From the NCBI GenBank assembly GCA_963676105.1, contig OY781039.1, positions 1,770,001-1,802,000 on the forward strand: a stretch of 32,000 nucleotides of DNA, read 5' to 3'. The DNA is from Erysipelotrichaceae bacterium. GTDB lineage: Bacteria; Bacillota_I; Bacilli_A; Erysipelotrichales; Erysipelotrichaceae. The position numbers and the translations under genes were made by a program. The notes under the pieces were generated by a model, which was given only the letters and a program-made list of their open reading frames with translations, did no database searches and was not told the DNA's origin. Each line of letters opens with the position of its first letter. Position 1 is the stretch's first letter. Below are positions 1,970 through 31,097 of the stretch, piece by piece.

Positions 1970-1987
1970 ATTTTCACATAGTAAGTA

Positions 1988-2016
1988 TTGACAGCGCTTT
2001 CAGTTTCATTCATAAT
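1988..2016 (+). promoter_or_regulatory. Promoter of the sugar ABC operon with an overlapping cre-like (CcpA) site
   Basis: TTGACA (1988-1993), 17-nt spacer, CATAAT (2011-2016). TGACAGCGCTTTCA (1989-2002) fits the relaxed cre pattern TGWNANCGNTNWCA and overlaps the -35 box and spacer. Confidence 0.55.
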
Positions 2017-2067
2017 CAAGGTGCAAGGTAAAGATAGAGACATAGTTCTCTATTTAAAAACCTATGG

Positions 2068-2085
2068 TATGGAAACGTTTCCATA
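2068..2085. promoter_or_regulatory. Perfect 18-bp palindromic LacI-type operator
   Basis: TATGGAAACGTTTCCATA is its own reverse complement and has the central CG typical of LacI/GalR operators. It lies between the promoter and the RBS (GGGAG) of the first permease gene. Confidence 0.65.
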
Positions 2086-2105
2086 TTAGATGAAGGGAGT
2101 CAACG

Positions 2106-8328: not shown

Positions 8329-8350
8329 AAAAGGCTCACGCCTTTTTATT
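8328..8350. terminator. Bidirectional terminator between convergent genes
   Basis: AAAAAGGC-TCAC-GCCTTTTT hairpin (8328-8347) with A-run and T-run flanks. It overlaps both stop codons. Confidence 0.6.
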
Positions 8351-9521
8351 TTATTTCTATAAACGATTGAAGTTTATCCATACCAATGGCACCAAGTGGT
8401 GCTGTGACAAGTATCGCAAGAACTGCCATCGCAAGTATGGTATTACCACTAGCTAAACCCATACTAAATGGAATAGCACCAATAGCGGCTTGGACAGTTG
8501 CCTTAGGTGAATATGAAACCATACAATAAATCTTTTCTTTAAAAGTAAAATTATTTTTAGATACAGATACAAAGACACCTAATGATCTAAAGATTAGACC
8601 GATAAAGAGAAGAGCTAAAGCACTTAATCCAATGTATTGAAGATGAGTTAAATCTACAATCGCGCCAACTAATACAAAGAGTAATAGTTCGGCAGCCACC
8701 CATGTCTTATTAAACTTAGCGGACAAACGATGAGCTAAGACAGGATATCTTTGAAGTAATGCAATGCCCATCGCTAGAATAGAGATGTAACCAGAAAATG
8801 GAATAATATCACCAAAATGTGACTCGATATTGACTAAGACAAATGATGTCGCTAATAGGATAAGATACTTAACGGTATCTCTTATATGAAATCTCTTAAA
8901 GAATAAAACTAAAATTGTACTAATTAAAAATCCAGTTACAATGCCTAAAATTAAACCTAAAGGTAATCTAACAAAAGTCATCGCATTAACATCTTGTCCG
9001 AGGGCAAGTGCCAAGAATGAACTAAATAAAACAATGACATAAACATCATCAACAGATGAGCCAGCCATAATGAGTTGAGGTATTTTTTTGGTGGTTGCTT
9101 TAGGGTTGTTAATAAGGTTTAGCATACGCGGAACAACTACCGCTGGTGATACTGCCGCAATAATACTTGCGAGTAATGCAGAATCAATATAACTAAGTCC
9201 TAAAAAATGAGGAGCTAATAAAGTGACTGTAATGATTTCTAAGCTCGCAGGTACAAATGATAATAGCACAGCAGGTCTTCCAATTTTCTTTAGATCTTCA
9301 ATATCTAAAGCAAGTCCAGCTCTAAGTAGAATCACAATTAACGCGACCTGTCTTAGTTCACTTGAGATATCTAAAACAGATTGATCTATAAGGTTTAAGG
9401 CATGTGGACCTAAAAGCATCCCTGCGATCATCATGCCGATTAGTCCAGGTAATTTAAGTCGATTAAGGATGCCGCTAAAAAGTAGTCCGACAAATAAAAT
9501 AATTGCTAAGCTTAAAAGCAT
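8346..9521 (-). CDS. Cation:proton antiporter (Na+/H+ exchanger family)
   Basis: 391-aa polytopic membrane protein with about 11-12 hydrophobic segments. Its sequence pattern is typical of the CPA/Na_H_exchanger family. Confidence 0.75.
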   Translation of the reverse strand: MLLSLAIILFVGLLFSGILNRLKLPGLIGMMIAGMLLGPHALNLIDQSVLDISSELRQVALIVILLRAGLALDIEDLKKIGRPAVLLSFVPASLEIITVTLLAPHFLGLSYIDSALLASIIAAVSPAVVVPRMLNLINNPKATTKKIPQLIMAGSSVDDVYVIVLFSSFLALALGQDVNAMTFVRLPLGLILGIVTGFLISTILVLFFKRFHIRDTVKYLILLATSFVLVNIESHFGDIIPFSGYISILAMGIALLQRYPVLAHRLSAKFNKTWVAAELLLFVLVGAIVDLTHLQYIGLSALALLFIGLIFRSLGVFVSVSKNNFTFKEKIYCMVSYSPKATVQAAIGAIPFSMGLASGNTILAMAVLAILVTAPLGAIGMDKLQSFIEIK

Positions 9522-9527: not shown

Positions 9528-9555
9528 GTTATAACATGTCCATTGAAAATATCAA
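9528..9555 (-). promoter_or_regulatory. Candidate leaderless promoter of the antiporter gene
   Basis: On the minus strand: TTGATA (c9555-9550), 16 nt, TATAAC (c9533-9528), 6 nt, ATG (c9521-9519). No SD is present. The -10 box ends in C, so the match is weaker. Confidence 0.35.
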
Positions 9556-9589
9556 AATACTTCGGTATATTAATAGAATAAGGGGACAG

Positions 9590-9958
9590 ATGATGAAAAA
9601 AATTATCTTACTATTAACCGTATTACTAACACTTACAGCTTGTTCAACAAGTTCGTCGGTGACAAAAATTGATGCAAAAGAAGCAAAGAGCATGATGGAG
9701 TCACAAGAAGTTATTGTGGTGGATGTTCGAACACAAGCTGAATATGATGAATCTCATATTGAAAATGCGATATTAATTACCAATGAAAATATTGATGGTG
9801 ATCCAGTTGAACTACCAGATAAAGATGCGACGATTTTAGTTTATTGTCGATCAGGAAATCGATCAGCTGAGGCTAGTGCAAAACTAGCGAATTTAGGTTA
9901 CACAAATGTCTATGATTTTGGTGGCATTATTGATTGGCCTTATGCTATTGTTAAGTAG
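9590..9958 (+). CDS. Exported single-domain rhodanese (sulfurtransferase) lipoprotein
   Basis: ATG 9590 follows AAGGGGA. MMKKIILLLTVLLTLTAC is a lipoprotein signal. The rhodanese active-site loop is CRSGNRS, within VVDVRT..EY..SHI. Confidence 0.85.
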   Translation: MMKKIILLLTVLLTLTACSTSSSVTKIDAKEAKSMMESQEVIVVDVRTQAEYDESHIENAILITNENIDGDPVELPDKDATILVYCRSGNRSAEASAKLANLGYTNVYDFGGIIDWPYAIVK

Positions 9959-9960
9959 TC

Positions 9961-10611
9961 ATGGCAAGAAAAGCACGTAATACATTAGATTCAAATTTAG
10001 TTTTAATTACACAAGCCTCTCAATGTGAGGTTTTTCGTGATGATAATGATCGTGAACATTTTCTTACACTCATCGAAAAAGCACAGAAGCAATATAACTG
10101 TAATGTTTTAGCATTCTGTTGTTCAGAAGAAAAAGGTTTTCAACTTGTTTTAGATACGAAGGGTGCAAACCTTTCACGTATTATGCAATCAATATCTATT
10201 TCCTATGCGATGTATCGAAAGAGTGAATCTCGTTTATTCGAACAACGGTATAAATCATATCCACTATACTCAGTAGATCAACTCAAAGAAAAGATCCAAG
10301 AAGTTGGTTTAAAAGATCCACAGTTTGCAGGTTGTTGTTTTATGAAAGATGAAACACACCCATGGGTTAGACGTGTTGATTTAGATGCGACAATCTTTGC
10401 TAGATCAGAACATGAAATCAATAGTCGTACTTATCTTCAAAAATGGTTAGATGAGCATAATATGACTTTTGATGAACTGCTTCAAGATAAGACAATGAGA
10501 AATCAAGCAATATTTGAATTAAGACAAAATTCAACCTGTACTTTAAAAAGGTTATCTGTTGCTTTTGGCTTATCTGAATCTACGATTTCTAAAATACTTA
10601 AACATCATTAA
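9961..10611 (+). CDS. IS200/REP-associated Y1-transposase-like protein with C-terminal DnaA-type HTH; apparently catalytically degenerate
   Basis: The N-terminus MARKARN..., ...DREHFLTLIEKAQKQYNCNVLAFC..., LSRIMQSISISYAMYRK and FEQRYKS are colinear with the COG1943 transposase-like family as I recall it. The expected HxH (HUH) position reads EEKGFQLVL. The C-terminus RNQAIFELRQNSTCTLKRLSVAFGLSESTISKIL looks like a DnaA-domain-IV-type HTH. Confidence 0.55.
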   Translation: MARKARNTLDSNLVLITQASQCEVFRDDNDREHFLTLIEKAQKQYNCNVLAFCCSEEKGFQLVLDTKGANLSRIMQSISISYAMYRKSESRLFEQRYKSYPLYSVDQLKEKIQEVGLKDPQFAGCCFMKDETHPWVRRVDLDATIFARSEHEINSRTYLQKWLDEHNMTFDELLQDKTMRNQAIFELRQNSTCTLKRLSVAFGLSESTISKILKHH

Positions 10612-10643
10612 AATACGATTTATAAAAAAATTAAGCAAAGTTC

Positions 10644-10672
10644 TTTACAATTCAAGTTCTGTCCCCTATACT
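10644..10672 (+). promoter_or_regulatory. Promoter of the TrxR-like/PDO pair
   Basis: TTTACA (10644-10649), 17 nt, TATACT (10667-10672). AGGAGGA RBS and GTG start lie downstream. Confidence 0.5.
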
Positions 10673-10695
10673 ATCCATTGTAGGAGGAACACAAC

Positions 10696-11658
10696 GTGAG
10701 TTTTAACTTTGCTTTTAAAACGGAAACTAAAACAGTAGATACTTCCATTACCTACGATTTTGTAAGTATTGGGGGAGGACCTGCTTCATTAAATGCAAGT
10801 CTGTATGCAAAGCGTAAAGGTTTAAAAACCTTACTCATTGCCAAGAAGATGGGTGGTAACCTGTTAGATACAGATCAAGTAGAAAACTACTTAGGTTTCA
10901 AAATGGAAACAGGTGAAGGACTAGCTGAAAGTTTCGAAAATCATTTAAAGTCATTAGATGTAGAAATACTCAGTGACACATTTGTCAGAAAACTAAGTAA
11001 AGAAAATGGACTCTTCAAAATAGAAATTGAATCTGGTGAAATCATCACAAGTAAAACAGTGATGGTCGCAACAGGATCTCAACCACGACACTTAGGTGTT
11101 AAAGGAGAAGAGACATTTAAAAACACAGGAGTTGCTTATTGTGCCATCTGTGATGCACCTCTATATAAAGATAAGACAGTGATTATTGCCGGTGGTGGTA
11201 ACTCAGCTGTTGAAGCTACGATAGATGTGGCAAAATATGCAAAGAAAGTGATTGTGGTACATCGATCAGAATTCAGAGCCGATGCAATACTACAAGATAG
11301 AATGCGAGCTATTGAAGGGATTGAGATTTATAAACAAACACAAATCTTAGAACTTGTAGGTTCAAATAAACTTGAAGGTGTTAAAGTCTTGGATAAAGAA
11401 ACAAACACTGAAAGAGTGATTGAAACTGAGGGCATATTTATTGAAATAGGACATGTACCTAATTCAAACTTAGTAAAGGATTTAGTTGAACTAAATTCAA
11501 TGAATGAAATTGTTGTTGATCAAAAACAACAAACAAGTCTTGAAGGTTTATTTGCGGCAGGTGATGTCACAGATATCCCTTATAAACAAATTATCTTAGC
11601 TGCAGCGGATGGTGCAAAAGCCGCACTTGCTGCTAGTGAATATGTTGTACACCATTAA
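10696..11658 (+). CDS. Thioredoxin-reductase-fold flavoprotein resembling the C-terminal (FAD/NADH) module of AhpF
   Basis: GTG start 7 nt after AGGAGG. Motifs: GGGPAS FAD-binding motif, redox-active CAICDA, GGGNSAVEA NAD(P)H motif, and C-terminal AAGDVTDIPYKQIILAAADGAKAAL (the YKQ variant I associate with AhpF rather than TrxB). Confidence 0.8.
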   Translation: MSFNFAFKTETKTVDTSITYDFVSIGGGPASLNASLYAKRKGLKTLLIAKKMGGNLLDTDQVENYLGFKMETGEGLAESFENHLKSLDVEILSDTFVRKLSKENGLFKIEIESGEIITSKTVMVATGSQPRHLGVKGEETFKNTGVAYCAICDAPLYKDKTVIIAGGGNSAVEATIDVAKYAKKVIVVHRSEFRADAILQDRMRAIEGIEIYKQTQILELVGSNKLEGVKVLDKETNTERVIETEGIFIEIGHVPNSNLVKDLVELNSMNEIVVDQKQQTSLEGLFAAGDVTDIPYKQIILAAADGAKAALAASEYVVHH

Positions 11659-11676
11659 TTAAGGAGAAACAAAACA

Positions 11677-12315
11677 ATGGAAAAATTATTAAACGAAGAA
11701 GTACAAAATCAATTAAAAGATGTCTTTAGTGGAATGACATCACCAATCACAATGGTTTTATTTACATCAAAAGATGCATGTGAAACTTGTGAACCAACAG
11801 AACAATTATTAAGTGAAGTTTCTGAACTATCAGACAAAATTAATGTTGAAGTAAAAGACATTGCAGATGCTGATGCGAAGAAATATGGAATTGAACGTGT
11901 TCCTTCATTTGTTGTCTTAGATGACAAAGGTGAAGACAAAGGTGTTAAGTTCAATGGTATTCCTGCAGGACATGAAATTAATTCATTCGTTAGCGCAATC
12001 ATGGAAATGGGTGGCGCAACGTCTGAATTACCAGCAGAACTAGTTGAGCGTATTGCTAAAATCGATAAACCTGTAAACATTAAAGTATTCGTGACATTAT
12101 CATGTCCACATTGCCCAGGTGCTGTTCAAAAAGCTCACAAATTAGCAATGTTAAACAAAAATGTAGTAGGTGAAATGGTTGAAGCTCAAACATTCTACGA
12201 ACTTTCACAAAAACATAATGTTTCTGGAGTTCCAAAAATCATTATCAATGATTCATTAGAACTTGTTGGTAATCAACCAATTGAAGCATTCTTAGATCAA
12301 ATCGAAAGTTTATAA
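11677..12315 (+). CDS. Double-thioredoxin-fold protein disulfide oxidoreductase (glutaredoxin-like; resembles the AhpF N-terminal domain / archaeal PDO)
   Basis: Two Trx-fold halves with CETC and CPHC motifs. FNGIPAGHEINSFVSAI and TLSCPHCPGAVQKAHKLAM align with AhpF N-terminal-domain blocks from memory. Confidence 0.75.
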   Translation: MEKLLNEEVQNQLKDVFSGMTSPITMVLFTSKDACETCEPTEQLLSEVSELSDKINVEVKDIADADAKKYGIERVPSFVVLDDKGEDKGVKFNGIPAGHEINSFVSAIMEMGGATSELPAELVERIAKIDKPVNIKVFVTLSCPHCPGAVQKAHKLAMLNKNVVGEMVEAQTFYELSQKHNVSGVPKIIINDSLELVGNQPIEAFLDQIESL

Positions 12316-12398
12316 GACTTAATTAGACAGTTCAAATGATAAGATCCCTCCAAAGTAGACAATGCAAATATGCAAAGTTGAAAGGAGGGATTTTTTAT

Positions 12399-13112
12399 AT
12401 GGGACGTAAGAATAAATATAGTCCTGAAATTAAAGTAGAAATAGTAAAAACTTTTTTAAGAGGTGAAAAATCAGTGAACCAACTAGGATTTGAATTTAAT
12501 GTTCGAGCTTACACGGTTCGTCAATGGATACATAGTTATCAAAAATATGGCAGAGAAATTTTTGAAGATAAAGAACGAAACAAACGCTATACAAAAGAAC
12601 TAAAAGATAATGTCATACACGAATATCTTAACGGCGTTGATTCCTTAGAAGGATTGCGTATTAAGTATCAAATATCATCCCATTCCATCATATTAAATTG
12701 GCTTAGAAAGTATAATAACCATATAGAACTGAAGGACTATGATCCTAAGGGAGATGTTTATATGGCTGGAAGAAGGAAGACAAATTTAGCAGAGCGGGTT
12801 GAAATTGTAGAGTATTGTCTCAAACACAATCGTGAATTTAAAAAGGCAGCTGAAGTTTATCAAGTGTCGTATTCTCAAGTTTATCAATGGGTGAAGAAAT
12901 ATGAACTTGAAGGACAAGATGGTTTACTTGATCGACGTGGTAAACGAAAACTAGAAGATAGTTTAAGTGAAGTTGAAAAGCTGCAGAAGAAGATAGATCA
13001 ACTCGAGAAACAATTAGAACTTAAAGAGAATGAGAACACACTCTTAAAAAAAGTGAAGGAATTCGAAAGGAGGCGGTATTCAGTCAAGTTAGACAAGAAG
13101 CGAAATACTTAG
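12399..13112 (+). CDS. IS3-family transposase OrfA (two HTH modules plus a leucine-zipper-like coiled coil)
   Basis: ATG 12399 follows GAAAGGAGGG. MGRKNKYSPEIKVEIVK..VRQWIHSYQKYG and a second HTH (VSYSQVYQWVKKYE) are followed by LEKQLELKENENTLLKKVKEF. The slippery A AAA AAA at 13046-13052 is in the OrfA frame (TTA AAA AAA GTG). Confidence 0.9.
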   Translation: MGRKNKYSPEIKVEIVKTFLRGEKSVNQLGFEFNVRAYTVRQWIHSYQKYGREIFEDKERNKRYTKELKDNVIHEYLNGVDSLEGLRIKYQISSHSIILNWLRKYNNHIELKDYDPKGDVYMAGRRKTNLAERVEIVEYCLKHNREFKKAAEVYQVSYSQVYQWVKKYELEGQDGLLDRRGKRKLEDSLSEVEKLQKKIDQLEKQLELKENENTLLKKVKEFERRRYSVKLDKKRNT

Positions 13113-13156
13113 CCATACAAAGCTGTCAAAGAGATTATCACTGGAGTATACATTGG

Positions 13157-14056
13157 ATGTGTCAGGTATTAGAGATACCGAGATCTAGTTACTATAAGTG
13201 GTTAAAACGCACTGAAACAGCACAAGAGAAGGAAAACCAACAAATTGCACAATGGATACTTGAGTATGATGAAATATTCGATCATATCTATGGTTATCGA
13301 CGTATGACAATAGCCATTAATCGATTGAATCATAAAAATTATAATCAAAAACGTGTTCGTCGTATGATGCGACTATTAGGGATAAAATCCGTCATACGTA
13401 AAAAGAAGAATAACTATCATAAGTCAGAACCTGAGATTACTGCTGAGAATATCTTAGCGAGAGATTTCTTCGCTAGTGCACCTAATCAAAAGTGGGTCAC
13501 AGACGTAACTGAGTTTAAAGATCGACATACAAAACAGAAACTCTATTTAAGTGCCATCTTAGATTTATATGATCGAAGTATCGTTGCGTATGAGATAAGT
13601 GGACGTAATAATAATCAACTTGTATTCAACACTTTTGAGAAAGCAATGAGTCTTAATCCAGGTGCGAAACCACTGTTTCATTCAGATAGAGGATTCCAAT
13701 ATACAAGTAAAGTATTCAAATATAAGTTAGAAACAAATGGATTGACACAAAGCATGTCTAGAGTTGGCCGCTGTATCGATAATGGACCGATTGAAGGTTT
13801 CTGGGGCATTATTAAATCAGAGATGTATCATCATCATAAATATGAAAACCTACAAGATTTAAACCAAGCTATTCATAAATATATGTCCTTCTACAATCAT
13901 CAAAGATTTCAAAGCAGATTCAATAATCAAACACCTATTGAAGTTAGAGAAGCAGCTTTAAATAGTCAGGTCATTCCACAATACCCAATTAAACCAAATA
14001 ATCGAATCATAAAATACTATGAAACCATAAAACAAAATCAAGAAATAAGAAACTAA
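13157..14056 (+). CDS. IS3-family transposase OrfB (DDE/RNase-H-fold integrase core), probably made as an OrfAB fusion by -1 frameshift at 13046-13052
   Basis: The -1 frame is open from the slippery site through 13157. Motifs: WVTDVTEF (D), HSDRGFQYTS (D), DNGPIEGFWGIIKSE (E). Confidence 0.9.
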   Translation: MCQVLEIPRSSYYKWLKRTETAQEKENQQIAQWILEYDEIFDHIYGYRRMTIAINRLNHKNYNQKRVRRMMRLLGIKSVIRKKKNNYHKSEPEITAENILARDFFASAPNQKWVTDVTEFKDRHTKQKLYLSAILDLYDRSIVAYEISGRNNNQLVFNTFEKAMSLNPGAKPLFHSDRGFQYTSKVFKYKLETNGLTQSMSRVGRCIDNGPIEGFWGIIKSEMYHHHKYENLQDLNQAIHKYMSFYNHQRFQSRFNNQTPIEVREAALNSQVIPQYPIKPNNRIIKYYETIKQNQEIRN

Positions 14057-21651: not shown

Positions 21652-23478
21652 TTATTCAACCGTAACTGATTTTGCTAAGTTACGTGGTTTATCTACATCT
21701 AGACCTCTAAGAACACTTGAGTAGTATGCAAAGAGTTGTAAAGGAATGATAGATAGTAGTGGTACTAAATCAATATGACTTTCAGGAAGGATATAAGTTG
21801 TATCACTGAAATCATCTAGGTATTCAATACCAGGGGTCGCAATTGTAATGACTCTAGCCCCACGAGCTTTAACTTCTTTAATGTTTGAAACCATTTTCTC
21901 TGCTGTATCATGTTGAGTGATTAAAGCTATTACAGGGAAACCTTCTTCGATTAAAGAGATTGTTCCATGTTTTAACTCGCCAGCAGGATAGGCTTCTGAG
22001 TGGATATAAGAAATCTCTTTAAGTTTTAGAGAAGCTTCTAAGGCCATCGCATAATCCATTCCTCTTCCTAAGAAGAAGATATTTCGAATGTTTTGAAGTT
22101 CTGAAGCTAATTGTTTAATAGACTCTTGTTCATCTAAGAGTTTTTGAGCCAATTTAGATACGCCTTTAATCGATGTGATTAAAGTAGAAATTTGATCAGC
22201 ACTTAAATTACCTTTAAGTTGTCCCAGTTTATTCGCTAATAAGATAAATAAGGCAACTTGTACAAAATAAGCTTTAGTAGATGCAACAGATATTTCTAAG
22301 CCTGCCCAAGTATAAAGAACATGATCAGCTTCACGGGCAATGGATGATCCAACCACATTAACGATCGCAATGGTTTTAACACCATTCTTTTTAGCTAAAC
22401 GCATCGCTGCTAAAGTATCTGCTGTTTCACCTGATTGTGAAATGACTATGACCACGTCTTTTTTGTTTAAGATGGGGTCTTTATATCTAAATTCTGAAGC
22501 AACATCTACTTCACACTGAATACGTGCATATTTTTCAATGAGTTGTTTACCGATCATGGCTGCATGCATGGCTGTTCCACAAGCGACTAAATGAATATGC
22601 TCGATATCATTTAAGATTTCATCAGTTAATCCAGCCTCAGTGAAGTCAATCGTATCTTCTTTGATTCTAGGGTTGATCGCATTAAGTAAGACAGCTGGTT
22701 GTTCAGAGATTTCCTTCAACATAAAGTGAGGGTACCCTTCCTTTTCAGCAGTTTGTCTGTCCCAAGAAGCGTGTTGTACTTCTTTTTTGATTTCTTCAAA
22801 ATCTAGATTCATGATTTTGATAGAGTCTTGTTTAATGATCGCAATTTCATCTTCTTCTAAAAGATAGTAATTACGGGTACGATCTAAGATCGCAGTAATA
22901 TCGGATGCGACAAAGTTTTCATCTTCACCGATTCCAACAATTAACGGTGAATCTTTTCGAATCGCATAAATCGTATCTTCATAACCTTTGAAGATAATCG
23001 CAGTCGCAAATGATCCTCTAATTTTCTCTAGAACTTTACGAATGGCTTCTTCAGGATTACCTTTTTGTACAAAGTAATAATCAACGAGTTTCGCTAAGGC
23101 TTCAGTATCTGTTTCTGTTTCAAAAGTATAACCTTTACGAATCATTCTTTCTTTGATTTGAAGATAGTTTTCAATGATTCCGTTATGGACAATTGAAACT
23201 CTATGATTACCATGTGGATGTGAGTTCACATCACTTGGTTCACCATGGGTTGCCCATCGTGTATGACCAATCCCTACTTGGCAATGATCAAGTTTAAAAT
23301 TCTCTAATTTCTTTTCAATATTATCAATACGACCAACAGTTTTAACAGTAGAAATTTCGCCATTATCAAAAACGGAAATTCCAACTGAGTCATAGCCGCG
23401 GTATTCAAGTTGTCTTAAACCCGCAACTAAAAAGTCAGGCGCATTCTTGTGTGTAATAACACCAACAATTCCGCACAT
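21652..23478 (-). CDS. glmS: Glutamine--fructose-6-phosphate aminotransferase (isomerising)
   Basis: MCGIVG N-terminal nucleophile, two SIS domains, C-terminal ...AKSVTVE. 608 aa. Confidence 0.97.
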   Translation of the reverse strand: MCGIVGVITHKNAPDFLVAGLRQLEYRGYDSVGISVFDNGEISTVKTVGRIDNIEKKLENFKLDHCQVGIGHTRWATHGEPSDVNSHPHGNHRVSIVHNGIIENYLQIKERMIRKGYTFETETDTEALAKLVDYYFVQKGNPEEAIRKVLEKIRGSFATAIIFKGYEDTIYAIRKDSPLIVGIGEDENFVASDITAILDRTRNYYLLEEDEIAIIKQDSIKIMNLDFEEIKKEVQHASWDRQTAEKEGYPHFMLKEISEQPAVLLNAINPRIKEDTIDFTEAGLTDEILNDIEHIHLVACGTAMHAAMIGKQLIEKYARIQCEVDVASEFRYKDPILNKKDVVIVISQSGETADTLAAMRLAKKNGVKTIAIVNVVGSSIAREADHVLYTWAGLEISVASTKAYFVQVALFILLANKLGQLKGNLSADQISTLITSIKGVSKLAQKLLDEQESIKQLASELQNIRNIFFLGRGMDYAMALEASLKLKEISYIHSEAYPAGELKHGTISLIEEGFPVIALITQHDTAEKMVSNIKEVKARGARVITIATPGIEYLDDFSDTTYILPESHIDLVPLLSIIPLQLFAYYSSVLRGLDVDKPRNLAKSVTVE

Positions 23479-23499: not shown

Positions 23500-23646
23500 A
23501 ATGTGTGAGTAGTTTAGGTTCTGTTGATTTGTCCTATTCCTAACGATGTCACTTATCACCGATGAGGCATCCGCCGAAAACTTCGATACTCCTCATTCCT
23601 CGTCACTTATCATTGTCATTATTTAATGACATTAAGTCGGGCGCTA
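23500..23646 (-). ncRNA. glmS ribozyme: glmS ribozyme (GlcN6P-dependent self-cleaving riboswitch) in the glmS 5' UTR
   Basis: The minus-strand RNA reads A|GCGCCCGACUU...AAGUGACGAGGAAUGAGGAGUAUCGAAGUUUUCGGCGGAUGCCUCAUCGGUGAUAAGUGACAUCGUUAGGAAUAGGACAAAUCAACAGAAC. This matches the conserved core blocks (AGCGCC cleavage site, GACGAGG, AUCGAA..UUCGGCGGAUGCC) directly upstream of glmS. The 3' boundary is approximate. Confidence 0.9.
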
Positions 23647-23782
23647 TAACTATAATTCTTTATTATTTTTATTTGTTTTTTTCTGTCGTTCCCCCTTTCT
23701 AATGAACCTATAATACCATAGGCAAAAGGCAAGTCAAATAGCCTATACAAGCCAAAGTCTATCGTGTATAATAATCTAGCAT

Positions 23783-23970: not shown

Positions 23971-24053
23971 GCACCAGTGGCGGAATTGGTATACGCGCAC
24001 GTTTGAGGGGCGTGTGGGCAACCGTACGGGTTCAAGTCCCGTCTGGTGCACCA
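23971..24053 (+). tRNA. tRNA-Leu (anticodon GAG), long variable arm, CCA encoded
   Basis: Acceptor GCACCAG/CTGGTGC, anticodon stem CACGT/GCGTG, loop TTGAGGG, variable arm TGGGCAACCGTAC. Confidence 0.9.
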
Positions 24054-24065
24054 TCAACAAATTAG

Positions 24066-24090
24066 AGATACGAGAAATCGTATCTTTTTT
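24066..24090 (+). terminator. Rho-independent terminator of the tRNA cluster
   Basis: AGATACGA-GAAA-TCGTATCT followed by TTTTT. Confidence 0.8.
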
Positions 24091-24177
24091 GTTTATAGAT
24101 ATATTTACTAAGTATCTTTGAATCTTATGTGAAACTTACATCTATAATTAACATCACAAAAAAGAATTATGGTATTC

Positions 24178-24208
24178 TAATGAAAATAAAACACATAAAT
24201 TTTCATTA
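24178..24208. promoter_or_regulatory. 10-bp inverted repeat (candidate operator or RBS-proximal hairpin) upstream of the ATP-grasp operon
   Basis: TAATGAAAAT (24178-24187), 11 nt, ATTTTCATTA (24199-24208). It lies between a TATAAT box (24143-24148) and the AAGGTGG RBS. A further TTTTCAT copy at 24221-24227 abuts the RBS. Confidence 0.35.
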
Positions 24209-24240
24209 TTTATGTAAAGTTTTTCATAAGGTGGTGGACT

Positions 24241-25401
24241 ATGAACTATGTATTTATTTCTCCAAGTTTCCCAGATAACTTCAAGTATTTTGTGAACAGA
24301 TTAAATTCATATGGGATTAATGTTTTTGGGATTGCTTCAGACTCTTTTGATAACTTAGATTCAGACTTAAGAGATCATTTATCTGATTATTATCGTGTTA
24401 ATGATTTAGAGAACTATGAAGAAGTTTATCGAGGGGTCGCTTATTTTGCCTATCGTTTTGGCAAGATTGACTATATTGAATCTCATAATGAACATTGGAT
24501 GCAGTTGGATGCGCAACTACGAACTGATTTTAATGTTGATGGTATAAAAAATGATTGGATCATGAGAATTAAGAAGAAATCAGAAATGAAGAAAATCTTT
24601 GAGTCTTTGAAATTACCTCATGATGATGGATCAAGATTTGAAACATTAGATGAAGCAAACAAATTGCTTAAGAAATATAAATATCCAGTCTGTGTTAAAC
24701 CAGATATTGGGGTAGGTGCAGCTTTTACTTATCGACTTAATTCAAATAAAGAATTGGAATCATTCTTTGAATCAAAACCTGATAAAACCTTTATCATGGA
24801 ACCTTTTAATGAAGGAGACATTATTACCTATGATGGTTTATTAGATAAAGAAGGCAAGATTATCTTTGAAAATTCTTTAGTTTATTCACATCCAGTGATT
24901 GATATTGTAAATGATAACTTAGATATGTTTTATTATTCAGATATTAAGATTTCAAAAGATTTAAGAGTGATGAGTCAAAAGATCTTAGATGTTTATCAAC
25001 TTAATACACGTTTCTTTCACTTTGAATTTTTCAAAAGTAAAGAAGGAAAGTTAAGTTTACTAGAAGTAAATATGCGTCCACCAGGTGGTAAAACGATGGA
25101 TATGTTTAACTTCGCTAATGATTTCGATTTCTATGATGCCTATGCAAGACTTGTCGCAGGATTGGATGTTTCAATTCCTAAGAAGAAAACATATAGTGTG
25201 TGTCATGTCGGATTGAAAACGGCAAATGATGAAAAGCGACAATTAAACTATGATCAAATCAAAGAACAGTTTAATGACTTAATTGTTTATGAAGGATCAA
25301 TGGCAGATATCTTATCACCTGCTTTAGGTAATTATTGTTTTTTCTTAAGAAGTTCAAAAATATCTGATGTTAAAAAGGCAGCACAAGCCATTATCAAATA
25401 A
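24241..25401 (+). CDS. ATP-grasp-fold carboxylate-amine ligase, paralog 1 (substrate unknown)
   Basis: YPVCVKPDIGVGAAFTY (ATP-binding Lys/Gly-rich loop region), MEPFNEGD, FFHFEFF...LSLLEVNMRPPGG (Mg-ATP Glu/Asn). It is colinear with the next gene. Confidence 0.8.
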   Translation: MNYVFISPSFPDNFKYFVNRLNSYGINVFGIASDSFDNLDSDLRDHLSDYYRVNDLENYEEVYRGVAYFAYRFGKIDYIESHNEHWMQLDAQLRTDFNVDGIKNDWIMRIKKKSEMKKIFESLKLPHDDGSRFETLDEANKLLKKYKYPVCVKPDIGVGAAFTYRLNSNKELESFFESKPDKTFIMEPFNEGDIITYDGLLDKEGKIIFENSLVYSHPVIDIVNDNLDMFYYSDIKISKDLRVMSQKILDVYQLNTRFFHFEFFKSKEGKLSLLEVNMRPPGGKTMDMFNFANDFDFYDAYARLVAGLDVSIPKKKTYSVCHVGLKTANDEKRQLNYDQIKEQFNDLIVYEGSMADILSPALGNYCFFLRSSKISDVKKAAQAIIK

Positions 25402-25413
25402 AGGATATGTTAT

Positions 25414-26583
25414 ATGAATTACATTATTATTTCCCCCCATTTTCCAGATAACTTCAAACTCTTTAGCACCGCTTTAGCGAAAGAGGGCATTAATGTGTTT
25501 GGGATTGATAATCAGAAATATAGTGACTTATCTGCAGATTTAAAACACTCTTTAACTGAGTATTATCAAGTTCATGATTTAGAGAACTACGATGAAGTTT
25601 TAAAAGCGGTTGCTTACTTCACCCATAAATATGGAAAGATTGATCGTATTGAATCTCATAATGAACATTGGTTAATGTTGGATGCGAAACTAAGAGAAGA
25701 TTTTAATGTATTTGGTTTTAAACCACATGATCTTAAAGCCATTCAGTCTAAGATGAGCATGAAAGCAGTGTTTAATAAAAATGGCATTAAAACAGCACGG
25801 GGTATTGTGATTGATAACCATGAACATGCCTTGAGTTTCATCAATGAAGTGGGTTATCCTGTTGTCGCAAAACCAGATACAGGGGTTGGTGCAAGTGGCA
25901 CCTATAAAATTCATAATGAAACTGAGTTAGATGCTTTTTGTGCGCAGAAAAATCATGCTGCATATGCGTTAGAAGAATATATTCAAGGCGAGATCCATAC
26001 CTTTGATGGTTTAGTGGATAAATACGGGCAAATCGTTTATGCGAATTCCTTTGTCTTTCCAGTAGGTGTTATGGAAACAGTGAATGATGATTTAGATATG
26101 ATCTATTACACCCAAGACACGATTATGGATGATTTAAAGGAAGCAGGTTTTAAAATTGTTGATGCGTTTAATTTAAAAGAGCGCTTCTTTCATATTGAAT
26201 TTTTCAGAACTGCAGCTAATGATCTATACGCTTTAGAAATCAATGTACGTCCACCCGGTGGTTATTCAATGGATATCTTTAACTTTGCGAATGATCGTAA
26301 CTATTATGCAGAATATGCGAAGCTTGTTGCGGGTCAAAGAATTGAAGAAAACATTGGGAATAAATATGTTTGTCTATACATTGGTCAAAAAGCACATATG
26401 GCAGACGACTACCTATTAACAAAATCTGAGGTTAGAGAAAGATATAACGATAAGATTGTTTTTTATGGTGAGATTGCCTCAATTTTTGCGAAAGCTATTG
26501 GGAATTATGCCTATATCTTAAAAGGACATGATTTAAAGGAATTAAAAGATATCGCAAAAGCGATATTAGAAAAGAGAACTTAG
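25414..26583 (+). CDS. ATP-grasp-fold carboxylate-amine ligase, paralog 2 (substrate unknown)
   Basis: YPVVAKPDTGVGASGTY, LEEYIQGE, FFHIEFF...LYALEINVRPPGG. It shares the blocks GINVFGI, DLENY.EV, KID.IESHNEHW, FNFAND and LVAG with paralog 1. Confidence 0.8.
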   Translation: MNYIIISPHFPDNFKLFSTALAKEGINVFGIDNQKYSDLSADLKHSLTEYYQVHDLENYDEVLKAVAYFTHKYGKIDRIESHNEHWLMLDAKLREDFNVFGFKPHDLKAIQSKMSMKAVFNKNGIKTARGIVIDNHEHALSFINEVGYPVVAKPDTGVGASGTYKIHNETELDAFCAQKNHAAYALEEYIQGEIHTFDGLVDKYGQIVYANSFVFPVGVMETVNDDLDMIYYTQDTIMDDLKEAGFKIVDAFNLKERFFHIEFFRTAANDLYALEINVRPPGGYSMDIFNFANDRNYYAEYAKLVAGQRIEENIGNKYVCLYIGQKAHMADDYLLTKSEVRERYNDKIVFYGEIASIFAKAIGNYAYILKGHDLKELKDIAKAILEKRT

Positions 26584-26585
26584 AT

Positions 26586-27338
26586 ATGCACGTAGAATAT
26601 CATGATTACTATAGTTATCGATTAGGGAGAAATATGCCTTTTAAGATTTATGGTCATGCCGGTAAACCGATGATTGTCTTTCCTTCTTCAGGTGGTCGTT
26701 TTTATGAGTATGAAGATTTTCAAATGATTGATGCGATTAGTTGGTTTATTGAACAAGGTTTAATTAGAGTCTATACACCTGATTCTATAGATGCAGAAAC
26801 GTGGTTAGCGGATGGAAAATGGGCAGGGGATAAAGCACGTTTTCATAATGCTTATGATAAATATATTGTTGAAGAATTTGTGCCTTATATCAGACTTCAA
26901 AGTGATTGGCCTTATCAAATGATTGTGACAGGTTGTTCAATGGGGGCATATCATAGCGCAAACTTCTTTTTTAAACACCCTGATGTCTTTGATACACTCA
27001 TTGCCTTAAGTGGTATTTATGATGTGCGATTCTTTGTGGGTGATCACTTAGATGATAGCGATGTCTACTATAATTCACCGGTAGACTATTTAAAAGGCTT
27101 AAATGATCCACATTACTTGGACAGAATAAGAGATGGGAATATAATAATATGTACAGGCCAAGGAGACTTTGAAGCTGATTCAATAAAAGATACACAGCAT
27201 CTACAAGCTGTACTTAATGAAAAAGGTATCGAAGCATGGGTAGATTATTGGGGGTTAGACGTCAAACATGATTGGGAATGGTGGCGTCAACAAATGCCTT
27301 ACTACCTTGGTAAATTGAAAGAGATAGGGAAATTATAA
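26586..27338 (+). CDS. Esterase-D/Fes-like alpha/beta serine hydrolase ('putative esterase' family)
   Basis: GxSxG elbow in VTGCSMGAYHSANF. C-terminal GQGDFEAD and KHDWEWW are candidates for the Asp/His of the triad. Size and layout resemble PF00756-type esterases. Confidence 0.7.
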   Translation: MHVEYHDYYSYRLGRNMPFKIYGHAGKPMIVFPSSGGRFYEYEDFQMIDAISWFIEQGLIRVYTPDSIDAETWLADGKWAGDKARFHNAYDKYIVEEFVPYIRLQSDWPYQMIVTGCSMGAYHSANFFFKHPDVFDTLIALSGIYDVRFFVGDHLDDSDVYYNSPVDYLKGLNDPHYLDRIRDGNIIICTGQGDFEADSIKDTQHLQAVLNEKGIEAWVDYWGLDVKHDWEWWRQQMPYYLGKLKEIGKL

Positions 27339-27343
27339 AAATT

Positions 27344-28525
27344 ATGGATTATTCAAACTTTTTTGATCAGTTAAATGATCGTCACAACACAAATTCCATG
27401 AAATGGGATGCACATGAAATGCTTAAAAAACCAAAGGATACTTATCCTTTATGGGTGGCAGATATGGACTTCAAAGTCATGCCTGAAATCGTAGAAGCTT
27501 TAAAGACAGAAGTGAATACAGCGATTTATGGTTATACTTTTGAAAGCGATGACTATACTAATGCAGTCATTAATTGGTTAGATAGACGACATAACTATCA
27601 TGTCAAAAAAGAATGGATAACATCAACACCAGGTGTTGTATCAGGTGTTAATGCAGCATTATTAGCTTTAACAAATGAGGGGGATCATGTGCTTCTTCAA
27701 GAACCTGTTTACTATCCGTTTAAGCGTTCAATCTTAACCAACAATCGTAAGGTTGCGATTAATGAACTCATCTATACAGATGGTGAATATAGAATTGATT
27801 ATGAAGATTTTGAAAAACAAATCAAAGAGAACGATGTAAAACTTTTTATTTTATGTTCACCTCATAATCCAGTGGGTAAAGTCTTCACTGAAGATGAGTT
27901 AAATAAAATGGTAGATATCTGTAAAAAATATGATGTCATCATTGTCTCTGATGAAATTCACATGGACTTTGTATTTAAACCAAACAAACATATCGTTACA
28001 GCAGAACTTAGAAAAGATTATGCTGATCATATCATTACTTTATATGCAGCCTCAAAAACCTTTAACTTAGCAGGCATGAAAGTATCACAACTCATTTCTT
28101 CTAATCCTGAGTTTATTCAAAAAGTAAAAGATGTTTATATGACTTTAGGACTACATGGTGTAAATACACTAGGCTTAATTGCTTCAACAGCTGCTTATAC
28201 TTATGGAGATGACTATGTGGATGGGATTGTGGCGTATTTAGATAAGAGTATTAAGTGGCTACAAGACTTTTTAAAAACAGAACTTCCACAAGTTAAACTT
28301 GTTAATCCACAAGGAACATATATCTTATGGTTAGACTTTAAATCATTAAACATGAAACAAGATGACTTAGATAAATTTTGTTTAGAAGATGCGAAGATGT
28401 GGTTAAACAACGGAAGCATTTTTGGTCAAGGTGGTGAAGGTTTTATGCGTATTAACTTGGCTTTACCTTTATCAGAACTACAAAAAGTCATGAATCATTT
28501 AAAGAAAGCGATTGATTCGCTTTAG
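27344..28525 (+). CDS. PLP-dependent class I/II aminotransferase-fold enzyme, PatB/MalY-type cystathionine beta-lyase (C-S lyase)
   Basis: N-terminal RHNTNSMKWD...YPLWVADMDF is the PatB/MalY hallmark. Also SPHNPVG, SDEIH and the PLP-lysine motif AASKTFNLAG. Confidence 0.85.
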   Translation: MDYSNFFDQLNDRHNTNSMKWDAHEMLKKPKDTYPLWVADMDFKVMPEIVEALKTEVNTAIYGYTFESDDYTNAVINWLDRRHNYHVKKEWITSTPGVVSGVNAALLALTNEGDHVLLQEPVYYPFKRSILTNNRKVAINELIYTDGEYRIDYEDFEKQIKENDVKLFILCSPHNPVGKVFTEDELNKMVDICKKYDVIIVSDEIHMDFVFKPNKHIVTAELRKDYADHIITLYAASKTFNLAGMKVSQLISSNPEFIQKVKDVYMTLGLHGVNTLGLIASTAAYTYGDDYVDGIVAYLDKSIKWLQDFLKTELPQVKLVNPQGTYILWLDFKSLNMKQDDLDKFCLEDAKMWLNNGSIFGQGGEGFMRINLALPLSELQKVMNHLKKAIDSL

Positions 28526-28534
28526 GAGATTTGT

Positions 28535-29083
28535 ATGAAAGTTGCCGCATTAATGGCTAATGGTTTTGAAGAAACTGAAGCCATCACAACAATTGATATT
28601 TTAAGAAGAGCAGGGATAACGGTTGATTTGGTGTCCATTGCAGACGAGATTGTGACAAGCTCACATGGTGTTAAGCTAGTGTCTGATAAAACATTTACAG
28701 ATATGAATGATTATGATGCGCTATTTTTACCAGGTGGACAACCAGGCACCAACAATCTTAAAGCTGATCAAAGAGTGATTTCGTTAGTTCAAGATTATGC
28801 TTCTCAAAACAAATTAGTTGCAGCTATATGTGCAGCACCTTTAGTTTTAGAAGAAGCAGGCATCTTAAATCAAAAAGCCATCACATCCTATCCGATGGGT
28901 GACTCAAAAGCTTTATTTCCTGATGCTCATTATAGTGAAGAGTTAGTTGTTAAGGATGGGAAAATTCTCACATCAAGAGGTGTTGGGACAGCCCTTAATT
29001 TTGCTTTAGCCTTTGTAGAAGCCTTAGGTTTAGATTCAAAGGATCTTGCGAAATCTGTTTTATTTCAAGGTAAACTGAAATAA
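28535..29083 (+). CDS. DJ-1/PfpI-family protein (YajL/ThiJ-like)
   Basis: GFEE.E, LPGG.PG, and the nucleophile-elbow Cys in AAICAAPLVL. 182 aa. Confidence 0.85.
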   Translation: MKVAALMANGFEETEAITTIDILRRAGITVDLVSIADEIVTSSHGVKLVSDKTFTDMNDYDALFLPGGQPGTNNLKADQRVISLVQDYASQNKLVAAICAAPLVLEEAGILNQKAITSYPMGDSKALFPDAHYSEELVVKDGKILTSRGVGTALNFALAFVEALGLDSKDLAKSVLFQGKLK

Positions 29084-29129
29084 TTCATTTTATATAGAAA
29101 ATATCCATAAGTGAGCCTGCTCACTTAGT

Positions 29130-29212
29130 GCACCAGTGGCGGAACTGGTATACGCGCACGTCTCAGAAGCGTGTGGGCAACCGTACGGGTTCAAGTCCCG
29201 TCTGGTGCACCA
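29130..29212 (+). tRNA. tRNA-Leu (anticodon CAG), long variable arm, CCA encoded
   Basis: Same scaffold as the tRNA-Leu at 23971. Anticodon stem CACGT/GCGTG, loop CTCAGAA. It is preceded by the hairpin TAAGTGAG-CCTG-CTCACTTA (29109-29128). Confidence 0.9.
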
Positions 29213-29224: not shown

Positions 29225-29250
29225 AACATCTCAAATGGGATGTTTTCTTT
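29225..29250 (+). terminator. Rho-independent terminator after tRNA-Leu(CAG)
   Basis: AACATCTC-AAAT-GGGATGTT (one G-U pair) followed by TTCTTTT. Confidence 0.6.
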
Positions 29251-29287
29251 TGGGGTTTTGTTATACTTGAAGAAAAGCGAGGTGCTC

Positions 29288-29986
29288 ATGAAATTTGTCT
29301 TTGATGTGGATGATACAGTCTATGATCTTAGTGAACCTTTTAAACAATCTATACGTAAGAATTTTCCTGAATTAAAGGTTGATATGGAAAAACTTTTTAT
29401 TCGTTCTCGATACTTCAGTGATGAAATATTTGAAGATCAAATGGCTGGCAAGGTCTCTTTAGAAGATGCTTATATTTATCGCATTACCAAAGCTTTAGAA
29501 GAAGTTGGTTTAAATATTGATAAAGAAGAAGCTTTATCTTTTCAAACAGATTACTATGACTTCCAAAAAGAAATTAAACTGGAACCACTCATGATTGAAC
29601 TCTTTGACTATCTTGTGAAACATAATCTATTAGGGGGGTTTATTACTAATGGAATAAGCCAACACCAAAGAACTAAGATAGAAAATTTGGGCTTAGAGAA
29701 ATGGATACCTAAAGATCAAATACTTGTATCAGGGGAAGTTGAAGTCAATAAACCAGATAAAAGGATATTTGAAATAGCTAAGAAACAATTTGAAATTGAG
29801 TCTGATCAAATCTATTTTGTGGGTGATTCCTTTGATAGTGATGTCATTGGGGCATTAAATGCTGGATGGATTCCAATTTGGTTAAATACTCGAAATAAAA
29901 TAAAACCGCAAGATTTTAATGAGGAAATTGTTGAAGTAAATTCATATAGTGCTTTAATAGAATTAGTAAGAGCTTTAATTAAATAG
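29288..29986 (+). CDS. HAD-superfamily hydrolase (phosphatase-like)
   Basis: ATG 29288 follows GAGGTG. Motif I is FDVDDTVYD (DxDxT). Later motifs are ITNG and VGDSFDSDVIGALNAG. The track ORF start (29171) lies inside the tRNA gene and is rejected. Confidence 0.8.
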   Translation: MKFVFDVDDTVYDLSEPFKQSIRKNFPELKVDMEKLFIRSRYFSDEIFEDQMAGKVSLEDAYIYRITKALEEVGLNIDKEEALSFQTDYYDFQKEIKLEPLMIELFDYLVKHNLLGGFITNGISQHQRTKIENLGLEKWIPKDQILVSGEVEVNKPDKRIFEIAKKQFEIESDQIYFVGDSFDSDVIGALNAGWIPIWLNTRNKIKPQDFNEEIVEVNSYSALIELVRALIK

Positions 29987-30007: not shown

Positions 30008-30754
30008 ATGACTAAACAGGTAATTTATCAATTTTATGCAGAATTAAGTGATTATAAGTATGGATGTAATCGACGTTTTCAAATCAAGGCCGATAGGACA
30101 ATGTCAAATCTTGCTTACACTTTGATGACTATGTTTGAAATGAAAGCGAGTCATCTCTTTCGTTTTATGTATAATGCAGAGTTAAATTTCATCACAAAAG
30201 TTGGTGAACATATAACAAATGAAATTAATCAAAAAGCGTTAATGCAATTCAACACGAATCCAAGTTTTAAAATGTGTATAGTTGAACTTCCTAATGAATA
30301 TATGCAAGGATTTGAACGATTCAAAACATTTGACGCAAGTGAAACGTTGATAAAGGATTTAGTTAGTGAACCCAATGAGTTTATCGATTTTGAATATGAT
30401 TTTGGGGATAGTTGGATGATTCATTTAGTGCTTGAAGAAATTATTGTGAGTGATACAACAAGATATCCTACAAAAATGTTTCCGAAAGTGATTGACGGAA
30501 AGGGTTATGGAATTATCGAAGACTGTGGAAGTATTCCTGGCTTAGAAAGTATTTATCGTGCATTTGAAAAGAAGTCGGGTAAAAAGTATGACGAGTTCGT
30601 TGATTGGTTAGGGACTGATCAATTAGATATGAAATCCTTTGATTTAGAAGAAATGAATGTACGTTTAAAGAAAATCCCTAGACTTTATCAAAAAGTATAT
30701 GAAGAAGACTATCGAATAAGTGAATCTGAATATCAATATTTAGAAAGGCTTTAA
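30008..30754 (+). CDS. pRiA4b-ORF3-like (PF07929-type) domain protein, function unknown
   Basis: IYQFYAELSD...RRFQIKADRTMSNLAYTLMTMFEMKASHLFRF...FEYDFGDSWMIHLVLEEI...GKGYGIIEDCGSIPG follows the plasmid pRiA4b ORF-3 family pattern as I recall it. Confidence 0.6.
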   Translation: MTKQVIYQFYAELSDYKYGCNRRFQIKADRTMSNLAYTLMTMFEMKASHLFRFMYNAELNFITKVGEHITNEINQKALMQFNTNPSFKMCIVELPNEYMQGFERFKTFDASETLIKDLVSEPNEFIDFEYDFGDSWMIHLVLEEIIVSDTTRYPTKMFPKVIDGKGYGIIEDCGSIPGLESIYRAFEKKSGKKYDEFVDWLGTDQLDMKSFDLEEMNVRLKKIPRLYQKVYEEDYRISESEYQYLERL

Positions 30755-30802: not shown

Positions 30803-31097
30803 TGAAAAATAAATAAACCGTTGAGACGGAGATAACGGTAGATATGACTTTACAGAGAGCCCAAGGTGCTGCGATTTGGGTAAGACACAGTTTATCAAAT
30901 GGACCGTTGAGGGTGTAGTGAAAAGCAAGTGCTTATTATTCTACAACGTGAAGAGCTACGTTAGTTGCTCAGGGATATGTTAGTATCCTATAAAAGTGCA
31001 TCGTTTTTTTGATAAGAACGGTGAAACAAGGTGGCACCGCGATACGTGTAATACATCGTCCTTGGCAAAACAAAAAGTTTTGCTTAGGGCGTTTTTT
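30803..31097 (+). promoter_or_regulatory. T-box riboswitch leader, Trp-specific (specifier UGG)
   Basis: Stem I has the AGAGA box (30854-30859 region). The specifier loop reads ..AAA UGG A.. with TGG at 30900-30902. The T-box sequence AACAAGGTGGCACCGCG is at 31025-31041. The terminator CGTCCTTGGCAAAAC/GTTTTGCTTAGGGCG plus T6 is at 31057-31097. It sits immediately upstream of trpE. Confidence 0.9.

Follow-up and report, generated by a model that had tools for sequence, protein, structure and literature searches.

A widespread ATP-grasp ligase–hydrolase pair in a probably composite five-gene block of an Erysipelotrichaceae bacterium

Introduction

Do five closely spaced genes in the genome of an Erysipelotrichaceae bacterium (assembly GCA_963676105.1) encode one pathway, or do they belong to separable units? 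The genes occupy positions 24241–29083 of a 32,000-nucleotide stretch of contig OY781039.1 (positions 1,770,001 to 1,802,000 of the forward strand), which was analyzed at its full length and is referred to below as the window; coordinates are those of the window unless another locus is named. All five are on the + strand. They encode two ATP-grasp ligases (ligase 1, 386 amino acids, 24241–25401; ligase 2, 389 amino acids, 25414–26583), a serine hydrolase with the PF00756/esterase-D fold (250 amino acids, 26586–27338), a pyridoxal phosphate (PLP)-dependent C-S lyase of the PatB/MalY family (393 amino acids, 27344–28525), and a DJ-1 family protein of the glyoxalase III/deglycase type (182 amino acids, 28535–29083). 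The coordinates of the open reading frames (ORFs) confirmed spacers of 12, 2, 5 and 9 nt between these co-directional genes, as described in the original prediction, which had been made from the sequence alone. That prediction interpreted the block as a single pathway for making or recycling a cysteine- or thiol-containing low-molecular-weight compound, with two sequential ligations as its core logic. The comparative analysis reported here favors another answer: on balance, we think it probable that the block is a composite operon of two separable units, a ligase–hydrolase cassette and a patB–DJ-1 pair.

Results

One ligase and one hydrolase form the conserved unit

Loci for comparison were collected from both sides of the putative cassette. 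A scan with the ligase profile, limited to one genome per species, provided 80 ligase-seeded loci, and a reciprocal scan of metagenome contigs provided 80 hydrolase-seeded loci; the compared loci, 171 in all, are designated by L-numbers (L001 and so on). In the ligase-seeded set, the hydrolase gene was adjacent to the ligase gene in 53 of 80 loci, 3 kb away in one, and missing from 26, four of which end at a contig edge. In the hydrolase-seeded set, a ligase was adjacent in 72 of 80 loci, with the ligase gene first in 60 and the hydrolase gene first in 12, and five of the eight exceptions begin less than 180 nt from the end of a contig. Of the two, the hydrolase is the more dependent on its partner. 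The sources of the ligase-seeded loci include Bacillota, Chloroflexota, Desulfobacterota, Melainabacteria, Obscuribacterales, Meiothermus, Synergistota, Myxococcota, Pasteurellaceae, Neisseriaceae and streptococci. The pair is also found on annotated megaplasmids of Peptoclostridium acidaminophilum and Pararhizobium qamdonense, in unrelated contexts.

A third conserved gene beside the pair was found neither by blast clustering of 849 neighboring ORFs nor in a Pfam census of 60 co-directional neighbors. Given the adjacency in both seeded sets and this lack of any other recurrent partner, the conserved functional unit is one ligase plus one hydrolase. Literature searches on an ATP-grasp or L-amino-acid ligase beside an esterase, and on COG4947, returned no paper on this pair.

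Some individual loci vary in composition. An ArgRS gene was the lone recurrent neighbor, accounting for four of the 60 co-directional ORFs (in four Anaerolineae loci) and recovered as the same four-locus cluster in the blast clustering, a distribution too local to interpret; in one Anaerolineae metagenome-assembled genome (L020) it lies at 11949–13658, directly after the hydrolase gene, probably through local synteny. The solved ligase nearest to the window enzymes, RizA, is Arg-specific. In L015, a protein of the S9 prolyl-oligopeptidase family (7606–9468) occupies the hydrolase position and overlaps the ligase gene by 4 nt. A different PF00756 esterase stands in place of the usual hydrolase in L025 (2540–3322), and another is present in addition to it in L048 (8224–9024).

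The patB–DJ-1 pair is separable from the cassette

The identities proposed for the two distal genes held up against curated models. PatB scores 440.7 bits with TIGR04350 (cut-off 340) over residues 7–390, and its translation contains the SKTF motif with the PLP-binding Lys. The DJ-1 protein scores 173.6 bits with TIGR01383 (cut-off 131.25) and carries the nucleophile-elbow motif AICAAP.

Conservation of the five-gene neighborhood was confined to close relatives. The full gene order is kept in L001, L083 and L084, in which ligase 2 is 81%, 66% and 63% identical to the window copy, and four of the genes are present in L082 (70%). In contrast, a PatB or DJ-1 homolog stood beside the pair in none of the 160 ligase- or hydrolase-seeded loci outside this lineage. 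Conversely, locus L167 (JGI Ga0672873_0002050, 1–3250) shares its backbone with the window (glmS, a glmS ribozyme, tRNA genes for Pro, Arg and Leu, and the same terminator), but this is followed directly by patB–DJ-1 and a tRNA-Leu gene; the three cassette genes are absent, which makes L167 a natural variant for presence or absence of the cassette. Its PatB is 59% identical to that of the window. At the DNA level, L167 and L083 are 77% identical in the patB–DJ-1 region and 95% identical in the tRNA/terminator flank, and L167 therefore appears nearer to L083 than either is to the window. This relationship suggests that the cassette may have been lost from L167. Whichever the direction of change, patB–DJ-1 persists without the ligases. 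More distant PatB homologs (51–53% identity) have neither DJ-1 nor the cassette nearby. Because of L167 and the 160 outside loci, PatB and DJ-1 cannot be regarded as dependent on the ligases, and the interpretation of the block as one five-gene pathway was not sustained.

The ligases most resemble L-amino-acid ligases

Ligases 1 and 2 align by BLASTP from end to end without gaps (167 of 386 positions identical, 43%; E = 1e-119), and every sequence block that had been quoted as common to them was found, confirming that they are full-length colinear paralogs. Both exceed the PF13535 (ATP-grasp_4) cut-off of 27 bits, ligase 1 with 30.8 bits and ligase 2 with 45.6 bits. Their best relative of solved structure by sequence (phmmer) is the L-amino-acid ligase RizA (PDB 4wd3), with E = 6e-7 for ligase 1 and 1e-11 for ligase 2. 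A profile built from 25 family sequences also ranked RizA first (E = 2e-21), with carbamoyl-phosphate synthetase as runner-up (9e-10). Foldseek searches with an AlphaFold model of ligase 2 (pLDDT 90.5) again returned RizA first (E = 1.4e-25, TM 0.73, 17% identity), and BL00235, PurK and BacD were also top matches. The model matched 570 Protein Data Bank (PDB) structures at E ≤ 0.001, and all of the best 50 are ATP-grasp enzymes, in agreement with a three-domain ATP-grasp fold. By phmmer, family profile and Foldseek alike, the closest characterized relatives are thus L-amino-acid ligases.

The ligases pass no NCBIfam cut-off and score far below the cut-offs of the models they touch; the BacD equivalog model NF053745, for example, has a cut-off of 850 bits and gave 25.5. 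Among the NCBIfam models, none that defines an equivalog of known product was found for them. The earlier statement that, by eye, the ligases match no familiar ATP-grasp enzyme needs one correction: neither a curated family nor a paper was found that gives them a product, but their best match, RizA, is of the L-amino-acid ligase type that had been dismissed. The sole PDB chain named glutathione synthase (7ta5) matches ligase 2 at E = 0.098. Cyanophycin synthetase was considered and rejected as an identity: TIGR02068, with its cut-off of 850 bits, gave scores of 20.6 and 32.2, and the proteins consist of a single ATP-grasp unit without a Mur-ligase domain. Paired ligases of the graspetide (microviridin) type were likewise rejected, as no conserved precursor ORF was found beside the pair and the best folds are those of L-amino-acid ligases and PurK, not RimK or MdnC.

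The catalytic residues were compared with those of RizA. In the 25-sequence alignment, which includes both window ligases, K153, E187, E262, E275, N277 and R279 (ligase 2 numbering) are invariant. Five of these, K153, E187, E262, E275 and R279, align with K151, E193, E268, E281 and R285 of RizA. In RizA, K151 and E193 contact the adenine of ATP, E268 is a Mg2+ ligand, and R285 was placed at the substrate by docking, with the R285A mutation abolishing activity (PMC13579937). The same paper gives no role to E281 (PMC13579937); this residue could be a second Mg2+ ligand only by analogy with E271 of RhiC. Because the catalytic residues are invariant throughout the family, ligase 1 included, both copies look active, consistent with the earlier observation that both keep the catalytic ATP-grasp residues. 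By homology with RizA-type enzymes, we infer that the ligase most likely uses ATP to form a dipeptide-like amide and has a dedicated hydrolase beside it.

The ligase duplication is specific to this lineage

A neighbor-joining tree built from 156 ligases places the ligase 1 clade as sister to the ligase 2 clade, and the two together hold only the window, L001, L082, L083 and L084; the duplication is specific to the lineage of the window. Identity to the window copy in L083 and L084 is 48–54% for ligase 1 and 63–66% for ligase 2, and by this measure ligase 1 is the faster-evolving copy. It is 82% identical in L001, on par with the other four genes, indicating that it is still constrained. Ligase 2, with its RizA-like L-amino-acid-ligase fold, is the copy nearer to the single ligase that most other genomes carry. 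In L082, the first gene is the ortholog of ligase 2 and ligase 1 is absent, having been lost. Independent tandem duplications of the ligase were detected in five more locus groups (L007/L096, L021, L036, L063 and L134). Since the duplication is limited to a lineage and L082 has a single copy, two serial ligations are not the basic design of the system, and the core logic that had been proposed for the block does not apply to most genomes.

The partner hydrolase lies outside characterized families

The hydrolase scores 37.6 bits with PF00756 (cut-off 22). Its S118, in the GCSMG motif, and H228, in an HDW motif, are invariant in the family and align with the 5vol esterase. The nearest folds to its structure model (pLDDT 92.9) are those of feruloyl esterases, S-formylglutathione hydrolases, esterase D and Ag85, at 12–18% identity and TM of about 0.75. 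Assignment as an S-formylglutathione hydrolase (FrmB/esterase D) was not supported, as NCBIfam returned no match at E ≤ 0.01 and the likeness is at the level of the fold (12–16% identity); by fold, the protein is equally near to feruloyl esterases and Ag85. A weak Peptidase_S9 match was also seen. The assignment is one to a superfamily, outside any characterized enzyme family. Where a ligase is the partner, the hydrolase is 50–68% identical across phyla and keeps its own GCSMG signature. Its profile recovers about 370 representative clusters at E ≤ 1e-30.

Fusions that might link the two proteins were looked for among long hydrolase homologs, which bear only low-complexity Ala/Lys/Thr tails without a Pfam domain. 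These long forms include P0421, in which the nucleophile Ser is replaced by Asp (GCDLG). In L170 and L171 (1214–3510), a distant hydrolase paralog (36% identity) has an Ala/Lys/Thr/Pro-rich tail of about 200 amino acids in loci that lack the ligase. The gene for this paralog is oriented divergently beside a DJ-1 gene, whose product is 41% identical to the window DJ-1.

A conserved operator-like element precedes ligase 1

The regions upstream of the block in the window, L001, L082, L083 and L084 were aligned and share three features: a TG-n-TATTCT sequence, TGAAAA/TTTTCA half-sites, and a palindrome. In the window, conserved columns at 24170–24178 (+ strand) form a candidate extended −10 element, TGgTATTCT (TG-n-TATTCT), with a predicted promoter function; a generic promoter scan did not call it. 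The operator-like element follows at 24181–24226 (+ strand), between the candidate −10 and the ribosome-binding site, and comprises half-sites TGAAAA (24181–24186) and TTTTCA (24200–24205) and the 14-bp palindrome TGTAAAGTTTTTCA (24213–24226). The ligase 1 gene has a strong Shine-Dalgarno sequence (AAGGTGGTG). The palindrome pattern TGWAAANNTTTWCA (TGWAAA-NN-TTTWCA) occurs once in the window, with 0.05 occurrences expected. It is present at the equivalent position in L001 (8800–8813), L082 (2809–2822), L083 (121–134) and L084 (151–164), was found at only three other places among the 171 loci, and does not precede patB in L167. Because its 2-nt center excludes an RNA hairpin, a dimeric DNA-binding repressor is the likely reader of the palindrome. 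The L082 version reads ATGT-N8-ACAT and would fit the layout of PadR-type operators. Rfam detected no known riboswitch or leader ahead of the ligase gene, either in the window or in 14 related Bacillota loci, and no transcription factor was found among ten small ORFs of the window. Co-transcription is favored by the conserved palindrome before ligase 1 and by the short distance (5 nt) from the hydrolase gene to patB, so the five genes are probably transcribed together in this lineage.

Flanks of the block and neighboring genes

The upstream boundary of the block is an intrinsic-terminator-like hairpin with a T-run on the + strand (24064–24097; site 24064–24087), in which a 10-bp stem is followed by TTTTGTTTATA. 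It closes a tRNA Pro/Arg/Leu cluster and lies directly 3' of tRNA-Leu(GAG) (23971–24053). Downstream, a palindromic hairpin not assigned to a strand (29108–29127) lies between the DJ-1 stop codon and a tRNA-Leu(CAG) gene (29130–29212, + strand). This hairpin lacks a T-run on the + strand and is not a canonical + strand terminator. The upstream terminator and the downstream hairpin and tRNA of the original description are all present. The first + strand terminator-like site past DJ-1 (29225–29252; site 29225–29244), an 8-bp stem followed by TTCTTTTGGG, is found only beyond tRNA-Leu(CAG), so the transcript may run through the tRNA, which is possibly co-transcribed with the block.

The tRNA-Leu(CAG) gene is near-identical to tRNA-Leu(GAG), and the two form 83-bp direct repeats that bracket the five genes and differ mainly around the anticodon; tRNA-Leu genes also bracket patB–DJ-1 in L167. 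In GC and GC3, the five genes match the remainder of the window and give no signal of horizontal transfer. A role in defense was considered and rejected, as PADLOC returned no match for the ligases, the hydrolase or DJ-1.

Other features of the window lie outside the block. A glmS ribozyme (Rfam RF00234, 65.9 bits; 23501–23656, − strand) is upstream of glmS (21652–23478, − strand). Past the block, a HAD-family hydrolase gene (29288–29986; YjjG-like, below cut-off), missing from the close relative L001, is followed by a gene for a PRiA4_ORF3-like protein (30008–30754; PF07929, E = 8.5e-33). A T-box leader (RF00230, 96.7 bits; 30812–31066, + strand) probably precedes a tryptophan biosynthesis operon (trpE onward), judging by synteny with L001. 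The region 9536–12315, unrelated to the block, contains a rhodanese lipoprotein, a weak IS200-like Y1 transposase match (E = 4.7e-4) and a double thioredoxin-fold protein.

Discussion

We propose that the block joins a widespread, self-contained cassette, in which a RizA-like ATP-grasp carboxylate-amine ligase is accompanied by its own cytoplasmic serine hydrolase, to an ordinary patB–DJ-1 pair that starts 5 nt downstream and is probably read from the operator-controlled promoter of the cassette. The ligase would activate a carboxylate, most likely that of an amino acid, as an acyl phosphate with ATP-Mg, and attack by an amine would yield a dipeptide-like amide. By inference, the hydrolase would act on the same metabolite, either breaking down the product or cleaving an ester to free the carboxylate substrate. 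The second copy of the ligase may widen or change the choice of substrate and would not add an obligatory second step. Extending this model, the pair may be an undescribed two-enzyme system, horizontally spread over at least six phyla, that makes and breaks a small amide (such as a compatible solute of dipeptide type, a signal molecule or a short oligomer kept in reserve), with duplications that diversify the product and, in this lineage, a dedicated repressor that controls it together with patB–DJ-1; we put this forward tentatively, as less likely than the composite operon itself.

Several findings weigh against the composite model and its amide chemistry. Among the roughly 76 ligase loci that are not truncated, about 22 lack a hydrolase within 10 kb; evidently the ligase can function alone, or its partner gene lies elsewhere. 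The fold scores of PurK, an enzyme of carboxylase type, nearly match those of the L-amino-acid ligases, so that amide formation between amino acids can be put forward only as likely. Within the hydrolase gene, a promoter-like site (TGGACA-16-TATAAT, 27118–27145) could drive patB–DJ-1 separately; promoter-like matches in the region are no commoner than in shuffled sequence. PatB and DJ-1 also remain joined to the cassette across considerable divergence (ligase identities as low as 63%), including in L082 with its different upstream flank, which leaves room for a functional link between them that is specific to this lineage.

The single thiol pathway of the original prediction, with a thioesterase-like hydrolase among its enzymes, can draw on the tight spacing of the genes, on the five-gene order of L001, L083 and L084 (and four genes in L082 despite its other flank), on the single conserved operator-like site before the block, and on the distant hydrolase paralog that adjoins a DJ-1 gene in L170/L171. 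We nevertheless consider it quite unlikely. Beyond the lineage none of the 160 loci places PatB or DJ-1 beside the pair, L167 has patB–DJ-1 without the cassette, and L082 manages with one ligase. The thiol reading was built on PatB, DJ-1 and the esterase-D fold, and the hydrolase matches no S-formylglutathione hydrolase model of NCBIfam; the ligases, far below NCBIfam cut-offs, are no closer to glutathione synthase than the weak 7ta5 match of ligase 2. What is left to this model is a juxtaposition confined to one lineage. That even the ligase and hydrolase are chance neighbors, an accident of synteny without a functional link, hardly deserves belief: about a quarter of ligase loci do lack the hydrolase, but the adjacency in 72 of 80 hydrolase-seeded and most ligase-seeded loci, which spans Bacillota, Chloroflexota, Desulfobacterota, Cyanobacteria-related groups, Deinococcota and Pseudomonadota with variable flanks and both gene orders, already contradicts it.

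Two further readings accept the pair as a unit and differ from ours in its chemistry. In one, the cassette is a miniature system to build and mobilize an amino-acid oligomer or polymer, or a dipeptide that serves as a compatible solute, comparable to cyanophycin synthetase/cyanophycinase or NAGGN. The pairing of a synthetase with a hydrolase and no further genes would fit, and the related ligase RhiC yields Leu oligomers in vitro (PMC13579937). The weak Peptidase_S9 match of the hydrolase, its replacement by an S9 peptidase beside the ligase in L015, the Lys/Ala-rich tails of the distant hydrolase subfamily, which would suit polyanion binding, and the saline or soda habitats named in the record titles of many source genomes point the same way. 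We find this rather unlikely, however, as the ligase lacks both a Mur-ligase and a primer-binding domain and reaches 32 bits against 850 with the cyanophycin synthetase model, the hydrolase is of the esterase-D type and belongs to no known peptidase family, the S9 replacement is a single case, and the habitat signal may stem from database sampling. In the other reading, the ligase forms no peptide bond at all; it would carboxylate an amine via carboxyphosphate, as PurK does, or make an ester or thioester, and the esterase would cleave a labile bond or an ester precursor. PurK folds score about 5e-21, compared with 1e-25 for L-amino-acid ligases, NCBIfam PurK models are among the best sub-threshold matches, and the partner belongs to an esterase/thioesterase superfamily. 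This alternative too appears doubtful: the sequence profile places RizA first (2e-21 versus 9e-10 or worse for carboxylases), PurE, the usual partner of PurK, is absent from these loci, and the census of 60 co-directional neighbors contained no biotin-carrier or carboxyltransferase genes.

Among known systems, the closest comparison for the ligase–hydrolase cassette is rhizocticin biosynthesis in Bacillus, in which RizA/RhiM and RizB/RhiC are two L-amino-acid ligases (PDB 4wd3; PMC13579937). RizA/RhiM is the best match in sequence and fold, with the same three-domain ATP-grasp architecture; its ATP (K151, E193), Mg2+ (E268) and substrate (R285) residues are conserved in the window ligases, and there too, two ligase genes lie in one cluster. 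At about 17% identity, however, the pocket residues are not shared. RhiM and RhiC catalyze two different successive ligations, whereas the window ligases are recent tandem paralogs, and the window has no phosphonate or antibiotic gene cluster; its ligases are instead paired with a hydrolase and are spread over many phyla. The fold (Foldseek E 1e-19 to 7e-22) and ATP-dependent acyl-phosphate chemistry are common also to BacD/YwfE, BL00235 and other stand-alone L-amino-acid ligases, but the window ligases fall far short of the BacD equivalog model, and BacD-type enzymes occur in antibiotic clusters or alone, without a PF00756 hydrolase. Cyanophycin synthetase/cyanophycinase and glutathionylspermidine synthetase/amidase resemble the cassette in combining an ATP-dependent amide ligase with a hydrolase for the same bond; they are not homologous to it, their hydrolases have another fold, and the window offers no evidence of a polymer or of glutathione. 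The hydrolase shares the PF00756 fold, the G-x-S-x-G elbow and the conserved His with esterase D/S-formylglutathione hydrolase, CE1 feruloyl esterases and Ag85; it differs from them in its low identity (12–18%), its lack of an NCBIfam match and its own GCSMG signature. For PatB/MalY and DJ-1/YajL-type proteins, the window members pass the curated cut-offs and showed no unusual features as proteins, and only their position behind the cassette is lineage-specific.

The chemistry proposed here is of an already known kind, that of ATP-grasp amide ligases; what is new is a widely distributed and genuinely uncharacterized ligase–hydrolase pair. The locus also advises caution, in that five closely packed genes forming an operon in one genome may only recently have been spliced together from independent units, and the thiol-metabolite hypothesis should stay out of the annotation. 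Both families bear generic names only, and the ligase query recovers more than 5,600 cluster representatives at E ≤ 1e-5, a threshold that also reaches other ATP-grasp families. Defined as two genes, the system has a function that is directly testable, and an answer could allow assignment of a function to the pair in fermenters, Chloroflexota, sulfate reducers, and some animal-associated Pasteurellaceae, Neisseriaceae and streptococci.

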